In this document: positions 4,206-23,869 of the stretch, one piece after another
Layout: every line of letters begins with the position of its first letter
Numbering within the stretch: position 1 is the first letter of the stretch
Assembly: GCA_951406725.2 (NCBI GenBank)
Contig: OX597830.1
Location: 9,548,001-9,612,000, forward strand
Source of the DNA: Octopus vulgaris
Taxonomy: Eukaryota
Length of the DNA: 64,000 bases
Direction of reading: 5' to 3'
Notes under the pieces: model-generated
The model's input: the letters and a program-made list of their open reading frames with translations, nothing else
Told to the model about the DNA's origin: nothing
The model's database searches: none
Translations under genes and position numbers: made by a program

Positions 4206-4604
4206 CAGCTACATTTATTGATGTTGTTACTGACAGTAGGTTTCGAATGCTGGTACAGGAAGAAGGCGTTTACATCGATCCCACTGTTTAATCAGTATTT
4301 GTTTTATCGATCCGAATGGATGAAACACAAAGTCGACCTTGGTGGAATTTCATCTCAGAGCGTAAAGACAAACGAAATACCGCTAAGCGCTGTGTCCGGA
4401 GTGATAACTGTTCAGCCGACTCACCGCATGATATTAGGTTCAGGAAAAACCTCGTGCGCCGTGTTAAAATAATGCTTTCGAATACTCCGGATGGTGCTCG
4501 AAAATTAAGGTGTGTTACCTAAGTTCACTGGTAGTGAACAGCTGACATCGTAGTACATCGCCAGCGTTAGAGGCTGTGCAAAGGCAATAAAATAATAATA
4601 ATAA

Positions 4605-4790
4605 TCCTTTCTACTATAGGCACAAGGCCTGAGATTTTAGGGGAGGGTATAGTATAGTCGAATCTATAGCCCCCAGTGCTCATCTGGTATTATTTCATCG
4701 ACCTTGAAAAGATGAAAGGTAAAGTCGACCTCGGCGGGATATGCAATAACAACGTAAAGAATCGAAAAAGTGCCACATGACACTCCGACA
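4605..4790 (-). mobile_element. SINE family D fragment
   Basis: GATGAAAGGTAAAGTCGACCTCGGCGG core shared with many copies. Confidence 0.7.
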
Positions 4791-5308: not shown

Positions 5309-6689
5309 TGCATTGATATTATATATATACATATAGATATGACACATAAATTATGAAGTAAATTGACAATATACACATTGATTCAACAAAGACTCTTAGA
5401 GTCTATTCTGCAATCAGTAAAATAATCTACGATTCATTTAAAAAAAGACGATAATGAAAATTGGAAAATTGTTGAGACTCTCGAGGGAAAATGTTTATGA
5501 ATCTTCACTTGAGTGAATTTGAAAACAGGCGCCCAGGTGGGAATTAATGAATTACATTTACCAATATGGTAAGTTAAGTTTCGCTATATTGTCGTTTTAT
5601 TACATTCATCTATAGACTATTTAAGTGCTTCTAGTGCCCCTTTCCTGATAATTAAAAAGAAACTTAACTACATTTCAATTAAAAGAGAGTAATGAGTGAT
5701 TCATATCACCGTGGAATTTCTTTGTAGATACCCTTTTAATTTATCTTGGTTAATATTTTTATAAAACAACTTCGATCGGTAAAATAAGTAACGGGCTTGA
5801 AGTTCTTTTAACCACCTTTTGGGTGGTGTAATTTCCCACTCCACCAACTTGCCATTGTTATTTGCCGTGTTTTCTTTTAAAGTACAAAAATATAGTTCTT
5901 AAAATAAAAATACTTAAGGAAAAAGAAGGAAGAGTAAAACATCCAAACAAGAAGGAAGGAGAGAAAAAAAATTAGCAGTTTTTTTTAAAATAAAAGATAG
6001 ATGAAGAGAGAGCAACAGTTCAAATCACAGCAAAGGCCACTCGGTACACCAGGCCAAAATTTTAACACAATTGTTAATCAGTTAAAAATTCATTCCAATT
6101 TTCTTTTCATGGGTACTCCTTGACAGGAACAATATTGTGGAATTTTTTCTAAAAATTCCCACGGAGTTATTCCTGGACAAATTTTCAAACAAAATTTTGC
6201 CCACCAAACCAATAATTTTTACAACTAAGTGAAAAAACATTTTTCACTCAGCCTCAGGCAGACTAGAATCCTTTAAGGACTTCTTGCTTTGGAAACTAAT
6301 TGCTGTAAACAACAGACAGGAAAAATGTCTTACCTTACAGCTGGGTTTCAAAAATCTTCAATTTAAGACGGTTTCAAAAACACGTCTTACAGCTTCAGTG
6401 TCAAACTCTGATTCGCACATGCGCAATGAGGTAGCAAGCCTCCTGGTAAGCAAGCTCCTTTATTTTTTATAATTTGCCATTTAAGGCATTACACAGAGGG
6501 GACAAACAAGGACATACAAACATAAAGGGTAAGCAGCTTAACGTTTAAAAATACAATAAAATTACAATAAAACGAATGAATATTGTACAATGGTTTTCGA
6601 TAAAAATTCCCGTTTTTTTACAAAATATTATCACTTTAAGGACAGGTACCCAGTCATCCGAGTAGAGCCTTTACTTCTTCAATCCGGCC

Positions 6690-8345
6690 CCACCTACCTG
6701 GTGCCATTCATACCCAACTTCCATACCACAGGCTTCCATCTTTTCACAAAAATATCTCGTGAGAGACACCTCTTCTCCAGCCTGATCTTACTACCGAGGT
6801 GGTAACTAAAAAAGTTGATCAACCCCTGACCGGAGACAAAGGTACCTGTCACTATACCTTTCATACGCGTCTTCTATACTGTTTCTTTCAGTATGGATAC
6901 TACGCAGGCAAAACAAGCCTTCCTTTTGCTGTTGAGGAAAGGAGGTGGCACAATCTCAATGATAAACTCAGCTGATAGCTGTACTCTTCCCATCACTGGC
7001 AACAGTTGTTCGGCGAAAGCTATCAGTCCCGTTAACTCCGGACATTCCACGAATGCATGCAACACGGTTTCCTTATCCTGCTCACATCGCGGATATGACG
7101 GCGAGACGGCACTTCCGTGCCTTGACAGTTTATCACGAACAGGTAACGCCGCACGGAAACACTGCCAGGCCAAGGATTTTTAGTAATTATCCAGATATCT
7201 CAGCCTGAACGTTCTCCTGAACAAGTTGACCAATTGATTTTCATCGTAGCCCAGAGCCTCCTCCAAGGCGTCTTCAGACATAAATTCCACTAACCCGCTA
7301 TAGAAATTTGCGGTGGAACTCCCGTTGCCGGCACTGCCCGCCCGTGAGTGTAGCTGTAGTGCCTGACGGCACTCCAAGTGCCATCCTCCCAGTTTAAGTC
7401 TCCGCTTGATCCATGCCCCAATGTCCGTTAAGGATGTTAACTGAGGAAGGTAGAACCCAACGTGAGGTGACCACACCTACTCTCAGAGGTGCCTCAGCCT
7501 TAATGCGAGTTTTCGCATCCTCAGCCAAGGGATCCCTAGCCCACCCTTTAGCGACTTTTGGCAACAGACAGAGCGCCTCAAACGTAGCTTTCCTCCCTTC
7601 CACAAAAAGCGGGAGAGGATTCTTTCCAACTTGTTCAGCCACGAATCAGGGCAAGGCACCACGGTCAGTCGGTATGTGATAACAGATACTATAAACATCT
7701 GCACCATCTCCGCCTTCCCTAGCAAAGATAACGCCCGCCAAGACCAAGTCTGGGTTAGAGCAGTCACCTTGCTGGTTACCTCACTCCAATTCTTCTCTAT
7801 CTGGAGGTTTGGGCCAAACCAGACTCCTAGCAAATTAACAGGACCTTCCGTCCAACGTCCCACGACGTTATTGGACGTCATCGGCTTGCCCGTCCAGGTG
7901 CTGAGTTGCAAACCGACCGACTTGTCCCTGTTAACTTTTGCTCCGCTTATTAGCCTTTGATGGCCTCTTCCACGACGGGAAGCTGGCCCTCATCAGCCAC
8001 GATGACGGAGATGTCATCCGCGTACGCTGTAGCACCTCTTCCACACCGTAGATAATGCGGCGCGCCCCCTAGTGCCTCCAACCTCCGAAGCAATGGCCCA
8101 AGAGCCAACACACACAGAAGCGGGGACAGGGGCCACCCCTGACGAATTGAACGCTCAATCTTGAACGGCTTCGAAAAGAAACCGTTCACCTTGACGACAA
8201 ACTCGATGTCGCTGTACAAAGCAGCAATCCAACCGAGGAAGGTCGGGCCCAGGCCAGCCTTCCTGAGGAACGCCGCCAAGTACCGATGGTCGACATCATC
8301 AAATGCCTTAGACTGGTCTAAATGCACCAGTGCTCCCCCTGCGCC
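6690..8345 (-). pseudogene. LINE ORF2 remnant: reverse transcriptase and C-terminal cysteine-rich region
   Basis: LDQSKAFD, RSIRQGWPLSPLL, AYADD, LLGVWFG, GGLGIP, CEQDKETVLHAFVECP spread over frameshifted ORFs 7950-8420, 7483-7911, 7180-7476, 6874-7173. Confidence 0.92.
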
Positions 8346-8551
8346 ATAAAGTTTCCTAATCTTCACCAAGGAGTAGCGTGTGGGGGATGTGGGTGGGGGA
8401 TGTGATTGGGGAAGGTCCACGAGAACGTTTTTTTCGCACTTGAGAATTCGCCATCTGATACCTCCATGGTATCATCTGATGGGTGAGTGATAATATTTTC
8501 TGACACAGTGTTTTCTGTTGGTGCCACATCTTTCAAGGGGATTGTATAATT

Positions 8552-9466
8552 TTATTTTTGTAGGGACTTGTGCGTGCAGGGGCTGGGTTTTTCCATGTTT
8601 TGTTTTGGGACTGGCACCTCAACAACGGGAGTGGGAGTTTTTGTGTTTGTGGAGATTAATGTGTTTGCAGGGGTCGGGACTTTTTTGTTATTTGCAGGGC
8701 CTGGTGTTTGCCACAATTTACTTTGATAACAATCAGCTCGAATGTGGCCTTTTTTCCCACAATGGTAACAGGTGGGCTTTCGGCCTTCCAACTGTACCCT
8801 AAGGCAACATTGTCCCCGACGAATACCTTTCCGGAAGGACCTGAAGGTCCTCCTGTGTCCCTTAAATTATTACTGTAATGTTCCGACCAAGCCAATTCTG
8901 GGGAGCGGTTTGTAATATTTTTATTTGGTCCGCCCTATTAAACTACAGGGCGGCCTCTACATCTTGCGGGTCTTCTTCAGGTGGTACTTCGTTGATTTTC
9001 ACATGGGACGTTATTCGTCCCATATAAGTTGGTAGAAGCACCACCTCTTTGCACTTCAGGGGATGCACGGAATGCCCACGGGCCACCTCTTCCTTTGAGA
9101 AATGGACCTCAACAGAGACATATCCCTGTCCCCTCACGATATACACTATATCCTTCCATATCGGGGACAGGCACTTTTCGATTATTTCTTTTTCGAAATG
9201 TTTAAACCTGTCTTGTGGGCACAAGGTTTTATTCACTACGGTCCGTTTCTCTGTTTTTAACACAGTGGAGGAGGGTGATATCACAACATCACCTCCCTCC
9301 TCCTTCGTCCTTTTGAAATATTCCTGTAACATATCTGTCGAAATATCAATATTTTCGGTTGCCACTGCGGCAACCGCCGCAAACTTTTTCATAGTGTTGG
9401 CGCAATTGCCGACATCAACATTGCTCTCTACAAGAGCACATTGTTCACGAATGATTTCAACCGACA
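8552..9466 (-). pseudogene. LINE ORF1 remnant (gag-like, zinc knuckle)
   Basis: ORF 8943-9551 followed by frameshifted ORF 8552-8791 with CYHCGKKGHIRADC (CX2CX4HX4C), directly upstream of the RT. Confidence 0.8.
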
Positions 9467-10247
9467 TGGTTGAAATAAATACAATTTTAAAAAATGGGTT
9501 TCCCACAAAATTGGGAAACCTATAAAAAGGTTTTCCTCTCGCAGAGGACAATAATAATTTCTTTTAAAACAGCAATCCAAAGTTCAAATCCCACCCCCGC
9601 TAGGGGGATGAGCACAAAAGTTAATCGAAAAAGACTATTCACAGTTCGACAAATAACAAACTGCCACAATGGCCAACAATTGTAGTTCAATAATTTTTAA
9701 ACAAATTGTATTTTAAAACAAATTATTCCCCCGGTAAAACCGGGAAACAAAACAGTTCAATAATATTCAACAACCTCGCGTTCAAAAACAAAAAGGTAAT
9801 CCAAAAAGTAGTCAAACAAAACAGTAACAAGAATAACACAGCAGAAATTCTTACCACGAAGAATCAGATCGCGTTTGAACGACAAAATATTAAACAAGCT
9901 AATTGCCGCACAGCCATTCTTGTTTTTCTTTTTCGCTTTATTACATTTTTTACGAACGCGAACGAAAAAAACTATTAATATTTGTTTGCATATGAAATTC
10001 AAACGGAAGTTGACATTTAAAACAGAAGCGAATCTTGTAATGTTAACTATTATAATTTATGTTTAATATACAAATAAATTTTATAGTTTAAGAATTTTTT
10101 TTAATATTCATATATAATTTGTTCAAAGTAATATGACTTCTATTTAATAACATGGAAAAAAACCTGGACACAGTCCCACACTTCTTCAATCATTATATTA
10201 TAGATATACGAATCCCTGGCACTAATGAATCTATTCTCAGTGCGTTC

Positions 10248-10717
10248 CGTCCGAGTCATTGATAAAGATTGTACTACCTTCCTCTTTCACCAAAGAAAAG
10301 AAGGTGGCTTTTCTCTGCGTAGTAACCATACTGAAAGATGTGCAAGCGAAAGGGATTGCGACAGGCCAATTCATCTCCGGACTTGGGCTGGTAAATTACT
10401 TCGCCGCCCATCTTTCTAGCAAGATCCGTCTGGAGAGGAGGAGCCTGACGCAAAGTGCGTTTGGAAAAAGATGGACGACAGCGGTAAGAAAGATGAGAAT
10501 GCACGAGGCTGTACTTGCACGGTCGGTCGGAGCATAAAAGAAAAGAAAAAGATTACCAAAAGAGATAACCGACCGGCGATTAATTCACTTGCCCGGAACC
10601 CAAATTCCTTCCAATCATCACGTATATTTTTAAATCCCATCCGTATATGTAAATCCATCTGTCTTTCCTTGTAACGTCCCCTCTATGTAAACCTTTTTAT
10701 AGGTAAATAAAGAAATA
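10248..10717 (+). mobile_element. 5'-truncated Tx1-type LINE with 16-bp TSD
   Basis: IKIVLPSSFTKEKKVAFLCVVTILKD aligns to IEIVPPPFLNSKRKACFACVVSILKE of the large copy; TSD TATTCTCAGTGCGTTC at 10232-10247 and 10718-10733. Confidence 0.88.
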
Positions 10718-11991
10718 TATTCTCAGTGCGTTCTGGCAGATTCGAACGTGGATGCCCAAGACTTTGTTGTGTTTTGTCACAGGAGAATACCTTCTCTTTT
10801 ACGACTGATGTGTTTTTAAAACACTGCACTCGATTCATTAGCGCAAGGGATTCTTAGAGCGCTCGTGTTTCGATATCGTTCTCTCTTGTCAGCCAGAGGC
10901 ACCCCGGACTAATGATTGGAACAAAGCTCGAAGCTCTTGTTCACTATTTCAGTGAACAAGCTGTTTGCTGATTAATGTCGATATCTGCCAACCGATAATA
11001 ATTGCACGGTGAACGGATAATTATTTGCACAATGAACAACGAGAATCAAAACAATGATTTGTATATTTATTCTTAATATATTCCGCCAGACTCGGACGCG
11101 AATGCACTAATCGCTGCTGTGCTAAGCCACAGGTGAACAACTTCTCTTTTACTACGAATAACTCACAGTTCTTTGAGAGAATCGTGTCTATCATGAATAA
11201 ACGTCCTGTGTTTCTTCCAGCCGTTGTTTTTCATCATTTTCCACCACCATCCCCTCGCATCATCTCATCCCTCATATCATCATTTCGCGATTCTCCACTC
11301 CTCTCTATCTCAAACCCATTCTCCTTCATATAAACCACCAAACACCCCACCCCGTTTCGTTACGACGACGACCATAACCATCAAGAACAACGACTCCACC
11401 ACCTCTACCACTACCACCGTCACCACCTCCATCTCCATCTCCACCACCATCATCGCCACCGCCATTAGCACTGTCACCACCAACAACATCACCATTAAGC
11501 GATTATCACGAATCACCCAACACCACCATCATCACCACCACTGACAGCAACAACATCAAGAAGAACGACTCTACCACCACCGTCACCACCACCATCACCA
11601 CCATCACCATCTTCAGCAACAACAACAAGAACACCACTGTAAACACCGCCCCCACCCCTTGGCAGCCCGGAAATCCGATCTCTCATCCTATGGTTCATAT
11701 AATTTGTCCTTTTCCAATTTATTAATGTTGAATAAATGATCCAGATAAGAGAGTTCTCTTAACGTCGGCCCTGGTGAGTACTCGAGCACTACGCACGTTT
11801 GGGAATTTGCACACAAGCAACCATCTACGTTTCAACATGGCCTCTTGTCACTCGATGCTCTCTGACATCTCTTCAAGATATTTTTCACTCTGAATAATGT
11901 GCCTATATGTGTACTGGCATACATAAACATACATACATACATACATACATACATACATACATACATACACACACATACATACATACATACA

Positions 11992-22428: not shown

Positions 22429-22796
22429 GCAAAGTTTTACTATAGGTTATACAAGATGTTATTGTATAACAAGATGCCATGCAGTGGGACTGAACCCGGT
22501 ACCATGTGGTTGGGAAGCAAACGTCTTACTACACATCCACACCTGCGCCTACATGTAGAAATTAAGTTTGCAAAGGGGCAGAATCGTTAATACACCGGAA
22601 TAAATGCTAAGCGGCATTTTTTCCAATTGTACATTCTGTGTCCAAATGCCAACGGTATCGACTTTAACCCTTTATCATTTCCACGTCGATAGTAACAGTT
22701 GACCATTGAGGTCGATGTAATCGACACACCATACCATCTCTCCCGAAATTGCTGACCTTGTGCAAAAATTTGAAATTAGTATGTGGAAATAATTAA

Positions 22797-23141
22797 GGCG
22801 GTGACCTGGCAGAATCCGTCGAGGTCGACTTTGCCTTTCATCCTTTCGGGGTCGATAAATTAAGTACCAGTTACGCACTGGGATCGATGTAATCGACTAA
22901 ATCCGTTTGTCTGTCCTTGTTTGTCCCTTCTGCGTTTAGCCCCTTGTGGGTAATAAAGAAATAGGTATTACGTCTGCCACTACGTTCTGAGTTCAAATTC
23001 CGCCGAGGTCGACTTTGCCTTTCATCCTTTCGGGGTCGATAAATAATGTACCAGTTACACACTGCGGTCGATGAAATTCCTTTGTCTGTCCTTGTTTATC
23101 CCTTGTATGTTTAGCCCCTTTGTGAGCAATAAAGAAATAAG
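22797..23141 (+). mobile_element. SINE family D, tandem body dimer with Tx1-like tail
   Basis: Two bodies each ending TTTGTCTGTCCTTGTTT...TAAAGAAATA. Confidence 0.85.
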
Positions 23142-23460
23142 AATCGTTACAGCTCAGCGGTATTTCGTCCGACTTTACGTTCTGAGTTCAAATGCCACCG
23201 GCGTCGACTTTCATAATATTCGGGTCGATGACGTAAGTAGCATTTAAAAAACTTCTGTCGATGTAATCGACATTTCTTTTCCTTCCGGAATTGCTGGTCT
23301 TGTGCCAAAATTTGAAAGTTATATGCAGAAATAATGAGTTCCTCCACGATTGTAGGAATTGTGTGTTTAATTAGCAGTATGAGCAATGAGCGGTCTAAAC
23401 GAAGTCGTGGAGAAGACTAAACGTATTGATTAAATAGAACATGTAACGAAACTTGGCTAC

Positions 23461-23869
23461 TTATTTCTTTACTATCCACAAGGGGCTAAACACAGAGGGG
23501 ACAAACAAGTACATACAAACGGATTAAGTCGATTATATCGACCCAGTGCGTAAATGGTACTTAATTTATCGATGTCAAAAGGATAAAAGGCAAGTCGACC
23601 TCGGCAGAATTTGAACTCACAACGTAACGGCAGACGAAATACTCATTTCTTTACTACCCACAAGGGGCTAAACACAGAGGGGACAAATAGGGACAGACAA
23701 AAGCAATAAGTCGATTATATCGACCCCAGTACGTAAATGGTACTTGATTTATCGACCCCGAAACGATGAAAGGCAAAGTCGACCTCGGCGGAATTTGAAC
23801 TCAGAACGTAACGGCGGACATAATACGGCTATGCATTTCGCCCGGCGTGCTAACGTATATGCCAGCTCG
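23461..23869 (-). mobile_element. SINE family D, tandem body dimer with Tx1-like tail
   Basis: Reverse complement of the same structure. Confidence 0.85.

Follow-up and report, generated by a model that had tools for sequence, protein, structure and literature searches.

The window analysed here, a 64,000-nucleotide stretch of the Octopus vulgaris genome (contig OX597830.1, positions 9,548,001 to 9,612,000, forward strand), contains two LINE copies and several copies of a SINE, SINE D. LINE copy 1 (6461..9890, minus strand) belongs to family 1, of L1/Tx1 type, and is 85% identical in DNA to full-length relatives over the 3' 1.9 kb. On the minus strand it comprises a 5' UTR, a decayed ORF1 (9519-8429), a broken RT and C-terminus (8378-6697) and a 3' UTR. 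Full-length family-1 relatives measure 5.43-5.48 kb; in copy 1 an internal deletion of ~2.07 kb near 8400 has removed the endonuclease and the start of the RT, and an RVT_1 domain is still present. The tail of copy 1 (6461..6521, minus strand) consists of a TGTCC tract, a predicted hairpin with a TGCC..GGCA stem and the end AAAATA, without poly(A). Behind it lies the 3' copy of the family-1 TSD (6445..6460, minus strand), which derives from the head of the SINE targeted by family 1 ("SINE A"). At the other end of the element, comparison with family-1 5' junctions identified a decayed 5' part of the SINE A head together with the 5' TSD copy (9904-9891) at 9891..9919 (minus strand). A second element (5700..6444, minus strand, extent uncertain) directly follows the TSD of copy 1. 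It is 77% identical over 138 bp to the element behind loci L025/L289, it contains no match to family-1 ORF1, and its position suggests that it is probably stacked at the same SINE-head site as family 1.

LINE copy 2 (10248..10717, plus strand) belongs to family 2 and is a 5'-truncated 470-bp insertion composed of the end of ORF2, the 3' UTR and the tail (10650-10717, plus strand), which has an ACCT..AGGT stem and terminal AATAAAGAAATA. The insertion is flanked by a 16-bp TSD (5' copy 10232-10247, 3' copy 10718-10733, plus strand); because the tail lies inside this TSD, it is part of the element and not of its target. The SINE D tail quoted in the first-pass annotation (22899-22963, plus strand) belongs to a two-unit array (22795..23140, start approximate, plus strand) whose tails end at 22963 and 23140 and which lies within the head of a sister SINE whose tail is different. 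Further SINE D sequences in the window are a dimer with one TSD around both units (23462..23876, start approximate, minus strand), a 5'-truncated copy (25073..25260, minus strand), a 3' fragment followed by a sister-SINE body with another tail (28338..28420, plus strand) and a dimer with a full head (47403..47804, minus strand). The sister SINEs (4596-4760, 23140-23325, 42880-43300 and 63530-63720) have their head and body in common with SINE D and carry two other tails, one of them ending in (ATT)n; no partner LINEs for them were found in 30 RT loci. The SINE D head contains what we take, by eye and against the consensus, to be A/B-like boxes, and ARAGORN found no tRNA in the window. Elsewhere, 199-260 resembles a minus-strand U6 snRNA copy, and frames at 58801-59853 and 60490-61275 (plus strand) read, by eye, like Tc1- and mariner-type transposases.

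The first-pass annotation had proposed that SINE D shares its 3' tail with Tx1-type LINEs. The three ends on which this was based are all present, and the match stands above all shuffles: local alignment of the SINE D tail with the 3' UTRs of copies 1 and 2 gave scores of 56 and 58, and the maxima of 2,000 dinucleotide shuffles each were 40 and 34 (0/2000 reach the observed scores). The tail common to SINE D and the LINE group spans 40-60 letters. Copy 1 has the first ~30 nt in common with SINE D (28/31), mainly the TGTCC tract, and differs in its hairpin and end; copy 2 is 74% identical over 68 nt and has the terminal AATAAAGAAATA in common, with a tract looser than that of copy 1. The proximal TG/TC-rich tract is of low complexity, and an unrelated SINE contains a comparable one (31683-31707 and 37851-37875 of the window). 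The two LINE copies had also been described as diverged in protein yet retaining the motif, and this holds: identity is 51% across ORF2 residues 1042-1129 (copy 2 versus an intact family-1 ORF2), and both tails match SINE D. Nor is the motif absent from most sampled copies of these families. Relatives were collected genome-wide with tail-free ORF2 queries, and among the best 30 of 40 scored loci for each family, the tail was present in 29/30 family-1 and 28/30 family-2 members. The pairing of LINE and SINE D tails is real and genome-wide.

A zf-RVT search of the 2.8-Gb genome, in which 150 of 25,803 candidates were scored and about 90 stretches, some overlapping, were taken, revealed a radiation of L1/Tx1-type families with ORF2s that are 52-99% identical. 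Most of them have the same kind of end: a pyrimidine-rich TGTCC tract leads into a predicted stem-loop, whose inner stem varies, and then into AATAAAGAAAT or something very close to it; the LINE samples favour young, high-scoring copies. The end pattern was matched in 127/142 loci, a count that includes at least six misplaced matches and passes over several loci scored as having no end in which one is visible by eye. After a stricter filter, a run of at least five A residues followed 0/123 LINE ends, which bears out the earlier description of these LINEs as essentially poly(A)-less; the corresponding counts were 1/120 for SINE D ends and 0/29 for family-4 ends. Among the contig rows shown from four RNA runs, none had a loose poly(A) end on the family-1 end, and contigs are a kind of data that cannot show transcript ends. 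Family 4 is very young and abundant: 150/150 scored matches were at least 99% identical, a tail-type end was found in 29/30, and many members (L451-L480, L183, L191, L194) have full frames of 1,146-1,149 aa. The genome thus sampled has many intact ORF2s, with differing inner stems and targets.

The LINEs are members of the L1 group. Their RT region scored 159 bits against human L1 ORF2p and 76 bits against R2, and two other LINE types of the genome, which we take from their motifs to be CR1-like and RTE-like, scored 49 and 73 bits against human L1 ORF2p. In a 40-row tree, 12 octopus rows, including window copy 1, and two database proteins fell on one side of a 100/99 branch; six RTs of other types were separated from the octopus L1/Tx1 rows at 99/99, and copy 1 grouped with family 1 at 100/99. 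Family 2 was left out of the tree because no retrieved copy had a single frame with the catalytic motif, and by tblastn its relatives are 57-76% identical to family-1 ORF2. The ORF2s of two intact relatives contain PF03372 (EN), PF00078 (RT) and PF13966 (zf-RVT) over cut-off, and ORF1 in two relatives contains zf-CCHC as its sole domain, with scores at or slightly above cut-off. In the Tx1 clade, ORF1 is described as having a CCHC knuckle in place of the mammalian Transposase_22 (PMC5203782). Of the earlier Tx1/L1-clade assignment, the L1 grouping therefore comes from the RT itself; no named Tx1 element (Tx1L, Keno, Kibi, Koshi) occurred among the 120 + 120 homologues and cluster members listed, so the name Tx1 is based on the ORF1 type and target specificity. 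The nearest named homologues among the matches listed are unannotated proteins of Argonauta (A. hians being nearest), Branchiostoma, Holothuria and Paramuricea. Octopus genomes are reported to be rich in SINEs and to contain L1-Tx1 families (PMC8967140; PMC13282606).

SINE D is ~230 bp long, and its last 24 nt have 99,045 exact matches in the genome, some of them being LINE ends; 35 SINE D tails were counted in 464 kb (the window together with 40 stretches selected by their position). TSDs were callable in 49/132 terminal units. These copies end in GAAATA in 47/49 cases, the pre-insertion base is A in just 15/49, and the TSD measures 14-18 bp in 43/49. SINE D and the Tx1-type LINEs end at the same base, ~5-6 nt past an A(A/G)TAAA hexamer. 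A comparison of TSD length, target motif and age had been suggested as a check on the partnership, and its outcome was divided. TSD lengths overlap, with 15-17 bp in family 1 (8/12 longer stretches) and 13-23 bp in family 2 (16/27). The ages of SINE D and family 2 appear compatible by a crude measure, SINE D copies being ~93% identical to their majority and family-2 copies 91-97% identical to their nearest neighbours. The target motif did not conform: SINE D shows a flank preference for (G/T)(G/A)TA(T/C), which differs from families 1-4 and fits no sampled family well. The presence of TSDs did not discriminate between SINE D (35/60) and sister SINEs with other tails (8/22; P = 0.09).

Not supported was the choice of the window LINE families, 1 and 2, as the partner of SINE D. 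Over the last 40 nt of SINE D, a third family (L088/L121) matched best, at 36/41, compared with 28/40-29/41 for family 2 and 24/43 for family 1, which matches SINE D in the proximal tract yet not at the end. Over 56 nt, the closest was L081, a family-2 relative (46/58). The exact donor was not found. Five pattern searches were performed, with 30 loci inspected from each of 120, 176, 50, 51 and 58 matches, and they returned SINE copies or truncations; the patterns exclude SINE-like upstream letters, and two of the searches would miss a LINE with the SINE hairpin that targets the SINE D head. Of 250 loci, 4 had Tx1 ORF2 C-terminal matches and none of these ended in the D tail. Since the complete D tail was found in no LINE and a third family is closer, copies 1 and 2 are, by sequence, members of the donor radiation and not demonstrated partners. 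No terminal D-tail match was found in the 3' regions taken from 30 RT loci that belong to other LINE types; many of the ORFs there are broken, so these regions do not take in every true end.

Single-sequence folding of the tails predicted a recurrent architecture in which UCU-n-UGU pairs with AUA-A-AGA to form an outer helix that encloses a family-specific inner stem (GCCC/GGGY, ACCU/AGGU, GAUU/AAUC, AUCC/GGAU or AACC/GGUU). A stem of at least 4 bp adjoining the hexamer was predicted in 55/77 distinct LINE ends (family 1 excluded) versus 22.6% of shuffles. Among hand-picked LINE ends, 18/18 folded better than the shuffle mean, with z <= -1.5 in 12/18, and the tail of copy 1 gave z = -2.85; two SINE D ends folded weakly (z -0.54 and -0.76). 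In an unfitted MAFFT alignment, 84% of cells pair compared with 79% when shuffled (0/500) and covariation is 0.196 compared with 0.125 (0/500), values to be read with the structure having been derived from the very sequences scored and the families being related. Two-sided change is seen at each of the four inner-stem pairs. The number of two-sided pairs in this alignment did not exceed that of shuffles (65/500), and RNAalifold returned no consensus structure for it. The inner hairpin is a prediction that these comparisons support fairly well. The outer helix is nearly invariant, is without two-sided change and overlaps AATAAA, the most conserved part of the tail. Polyadenylation could explain such a helix, whose pairing may simply follow from conservation of the poly(A) signal.

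Our preferred explanation is that SINE D is probably copied by Tx1-type ORF2 proteins that recognise the predicted 3' stem-loop, not poly(A). A Tx1-type ORF2p would bind the ~35-nt stem-loop, made up of the outer UCU-n-UGU/AUA-A-AGA helix and a family-specific inner stem of 3-6 bp, and, whether the template is LINE or SINE D RNA, reverse transcription would begin at a set position immediately downstream of the stem-loop. The SINE D tail could have come from an unsampled family, an extinct family or recombination between families, and SINE D is perhaps served by more than one LINE family. It is unlikely, though worth weighing, that recognition is instead loose, with the Tx1-derived tail acting mainly as a polyadenylation cassette (U/GU-rich tract, UGUA, AAUAAA) and ORF2p copying whatever RNA its particle contains, starting close to the 3' end. 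The conservation of AATAAA, the outer helix without two-sided change, the RNAalifold result and the weakly folding SINE D ends all fit such a cassette. Polyadenylation, however, places cleavage 10-30 nt downstream of the hexamer and adds poly(A), and the genomic copies stop ~5 nt past the hexamer without an A-run. In addition, the hexamer is AGTAAA in 69/95 SINE D tails, which keep the same end base, and the inner stem changes in sequence between families yet stays paired.

Two further alternatives concern the origin of the tail. It seems quite improbable that SINE D owes its mobility to a different type of LINE (CR1-like, RTE-like or R4-like) and that the tail is a relic or arose by low-complexity convergence. 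LINEs of other types are abundant (also in PMC13282606, Table 1), TSDs are found in sister SINEs with other tails too, and the proximal tract is indeed of low complexity; yet the CR1-like family ends in a different sequence followed by (ATT)n, the 30 RT loci described above, a set in which R4-like ends are not included, had no terminal D-tail match, and SINE D ends at the Tx1-type end base without terminal repeats. Hardly credible is the proposal that the shared sequence is a LINE target or the remnant of a neighbouring SINE, Tx1 elements having inserted into SINE D. Insertion into other repeats is common among Tx1-clade elements (PMC4494074), and the family-1 target is indeed a SINE. In copy 2 and in full-length copies, however, the TSDs enclose the tail; the tail differs from family to family, and the SINE targeted by family 1 is another one, which lies downstream of the tail. 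For families 1-3, TSD positions rule out the tail as the insertion target.

Exact SINE D tails continue into AGGTATTTCG, from the middle of the element's own head, in 24,847/99,045 cases, and SINE D forms self-arrays with a period of 184-187 bp and up to ten units, often within one TSD. At loci L388, L389, L390 and L381, SINE D arrays of 4-10 units are present whose units share locus-private changes; such private changes imply that local amplification contributes. The tail variant of SINE D also predicts the flank, GGGT occurring with GGTAT (74:3) and GGGC with AGAA (18:3; P = 8e-14), a statistic drawn from non-independent copies and from loci of which many were pattern-selected. Among 20 pairs of TSD copies with differing first bases, the match to AGGTAT lay in the 3' copy 15 times and in the 5' copy three times (P = 0.008), some of the TSD calls being doubtful. 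Tentatively, read-through bases behind the tail might pair with the nicked target and so give rise to the AGGTAT and AAGAA flank classes and the 184-bp arrays. Such pairing would account for the link between tail variant and flank, for the AGGTAT bias of the 3' TSD copy and for the 184-bp arrays formed with the element's own head. It is conceivable, though we would not favour it, that the octopus Tx1 LINEs are L1-group retrotransposons wholly independent of poly(A), which start reverse transcription inside the RNA at a set point past a stem-loop while RNA bases further downstream pair with the nicked DNA, and that the read-through flank of a passenger helps to choose its landing site. The link between tail variant and flank also fits different partner families for different SINE D variants.

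L1-clade LINEs with tail-sharing SINEs have been described in maize (ZmSINE2/ZmSINE3 and LINE1-1_ZM) and Chlamydomonas (SINEX-3_CR and L1-1_CR) (Ohshima 2012, PMC3472496; 2013, PMC3747384). As in octopus, an L1-clade LINE and a SINE have a common 3' end, there of about 50-80 nt; the maize hairpin, comparable to the one predicted in octopus, combines a variable, compensating stem with conserved flanks, and its stringency was also deduced from sequence. The octopus case differs in being from an animal, in involving Tx1-type LINEs and in having genomic copies without poly(A), whereas the algal pair ends in poly(A); moreover, the octopus tail occurs in many families, and the copy number of SINE D is roughly 100,000 or higher. 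According to the cited work of Ohshima, only three SINEs have L1-clade tails among >800 L1-clade families, and stringent recognition was proposed to be ancestral. Crocodilian SINEU elements are presumed to be mobilised by Tx1-clade LINEs, Tx1-Mar, and that study describes Tx1 families comparable to those of octopus, with transposons, microsatellites and snRNA genes as targets, as well as tandem insertions (Kojima 2015, PMC4494074). Unlike SINE D, SINEU elements begin with snRNA heads and end in poly(A), and the sections cited report that a LINE with the SINEU-1 3' terminus was not found (PMC4494074). The link between SINEU and Tx1-Mar is a common target, whereas in octopus it is a common tail and the family-1 target is a SINE head. 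The L2-clade elements UnaL2, ZfL2-1 and ZfL2-2 and their SINEs have a common 3' stem-loop, as is predicted in octopus (Hayashi 2014, PMC4176376); those pairs were proven by assay, and the octopus pair is known at the level of sequence.

Mollusc SINEs with conserved central domains have been described (Matetovici 2016, PMC4758252; Nishihara 2016, PMC4824008; Martelossi 2024, PMC11481361), and like the octopus SINEs they combine a tRNA-like head and a common body with swapped tails; the octopus SINEs OR1/OR2 are named in the same papers. The partners named there are CR1, L2, CR1-Zenon, Nimb and I, in contrast to the Tx1 type of the proposed SINE D partner, and "Tx1" is absent from the main text of PMC11481361 and PMC4824008. 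The main octopus SINE types are given as tRNA-Core and tRNA-Deu (PMC8967140), and no L1/Tx1 tail pair appears in the cited sections of Kojima 2018 (PMC5786205). No animal or octopus Tx1/SINE tail pair was found in the literature searched; repeat databases and supplements may hold one. Such a pair in an animal Tx1 lineage would extend stringent L1-clade recognition to animals. The surprise is moderate, because recognition of RNA secondary structure is already attributed to non-mammalian L1 machineries (Kojima 2020, PMC7245038). The intact octopus ORF2s are close enough to human ORF2p for structure-guided comparison and offer a natural panel in which the reading of a hairpin can be set against the reading of poly(A).

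Many Tx1 families show target preference, for which a threshold of 20% of flanks has been used (PMC4494074). Family 1 has a single insertion site within the tRNA-like head of SINE A, a SINE different from SINE D, as seen in 28/30 3' flanks (best 30 of 40 scored), and SINE D was not found at this site in the samples. Most of the 29 family-4 ends are followed by TATC-type repeats ((TATC)n), and no target specificity was seen for families 2 and 3. At L257:796-959, a Tx1-type 3' end adjoins the first base of a full-length U1 snRNA (Rfam, 125 bits); this LINE is possibly a U1-targeting family, of which there is one clear copy only, and the first few flank bases of L253 are similar. The 3' flanks of L134, L247, L251, L260, L082, L123, L242 and L243 contain recurring CTGATGA..GAAA-like letters. 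By eye these resemble hammerhead ribozymes, although an Rfam scan of three such flank loci detected no hammerhead model, and the families concerned may target another repeat. The ends of L261, L274 and L272 are followed by (TTA)n and those of L131 and L279 by (TC)n-type microsatellites, as has been described for other Tx1 families. At L085, L126, L127, L129 and L138, and at L123 and L124, the 3' flank is the start of a copy of the same family, forming head-to-tail stacks.
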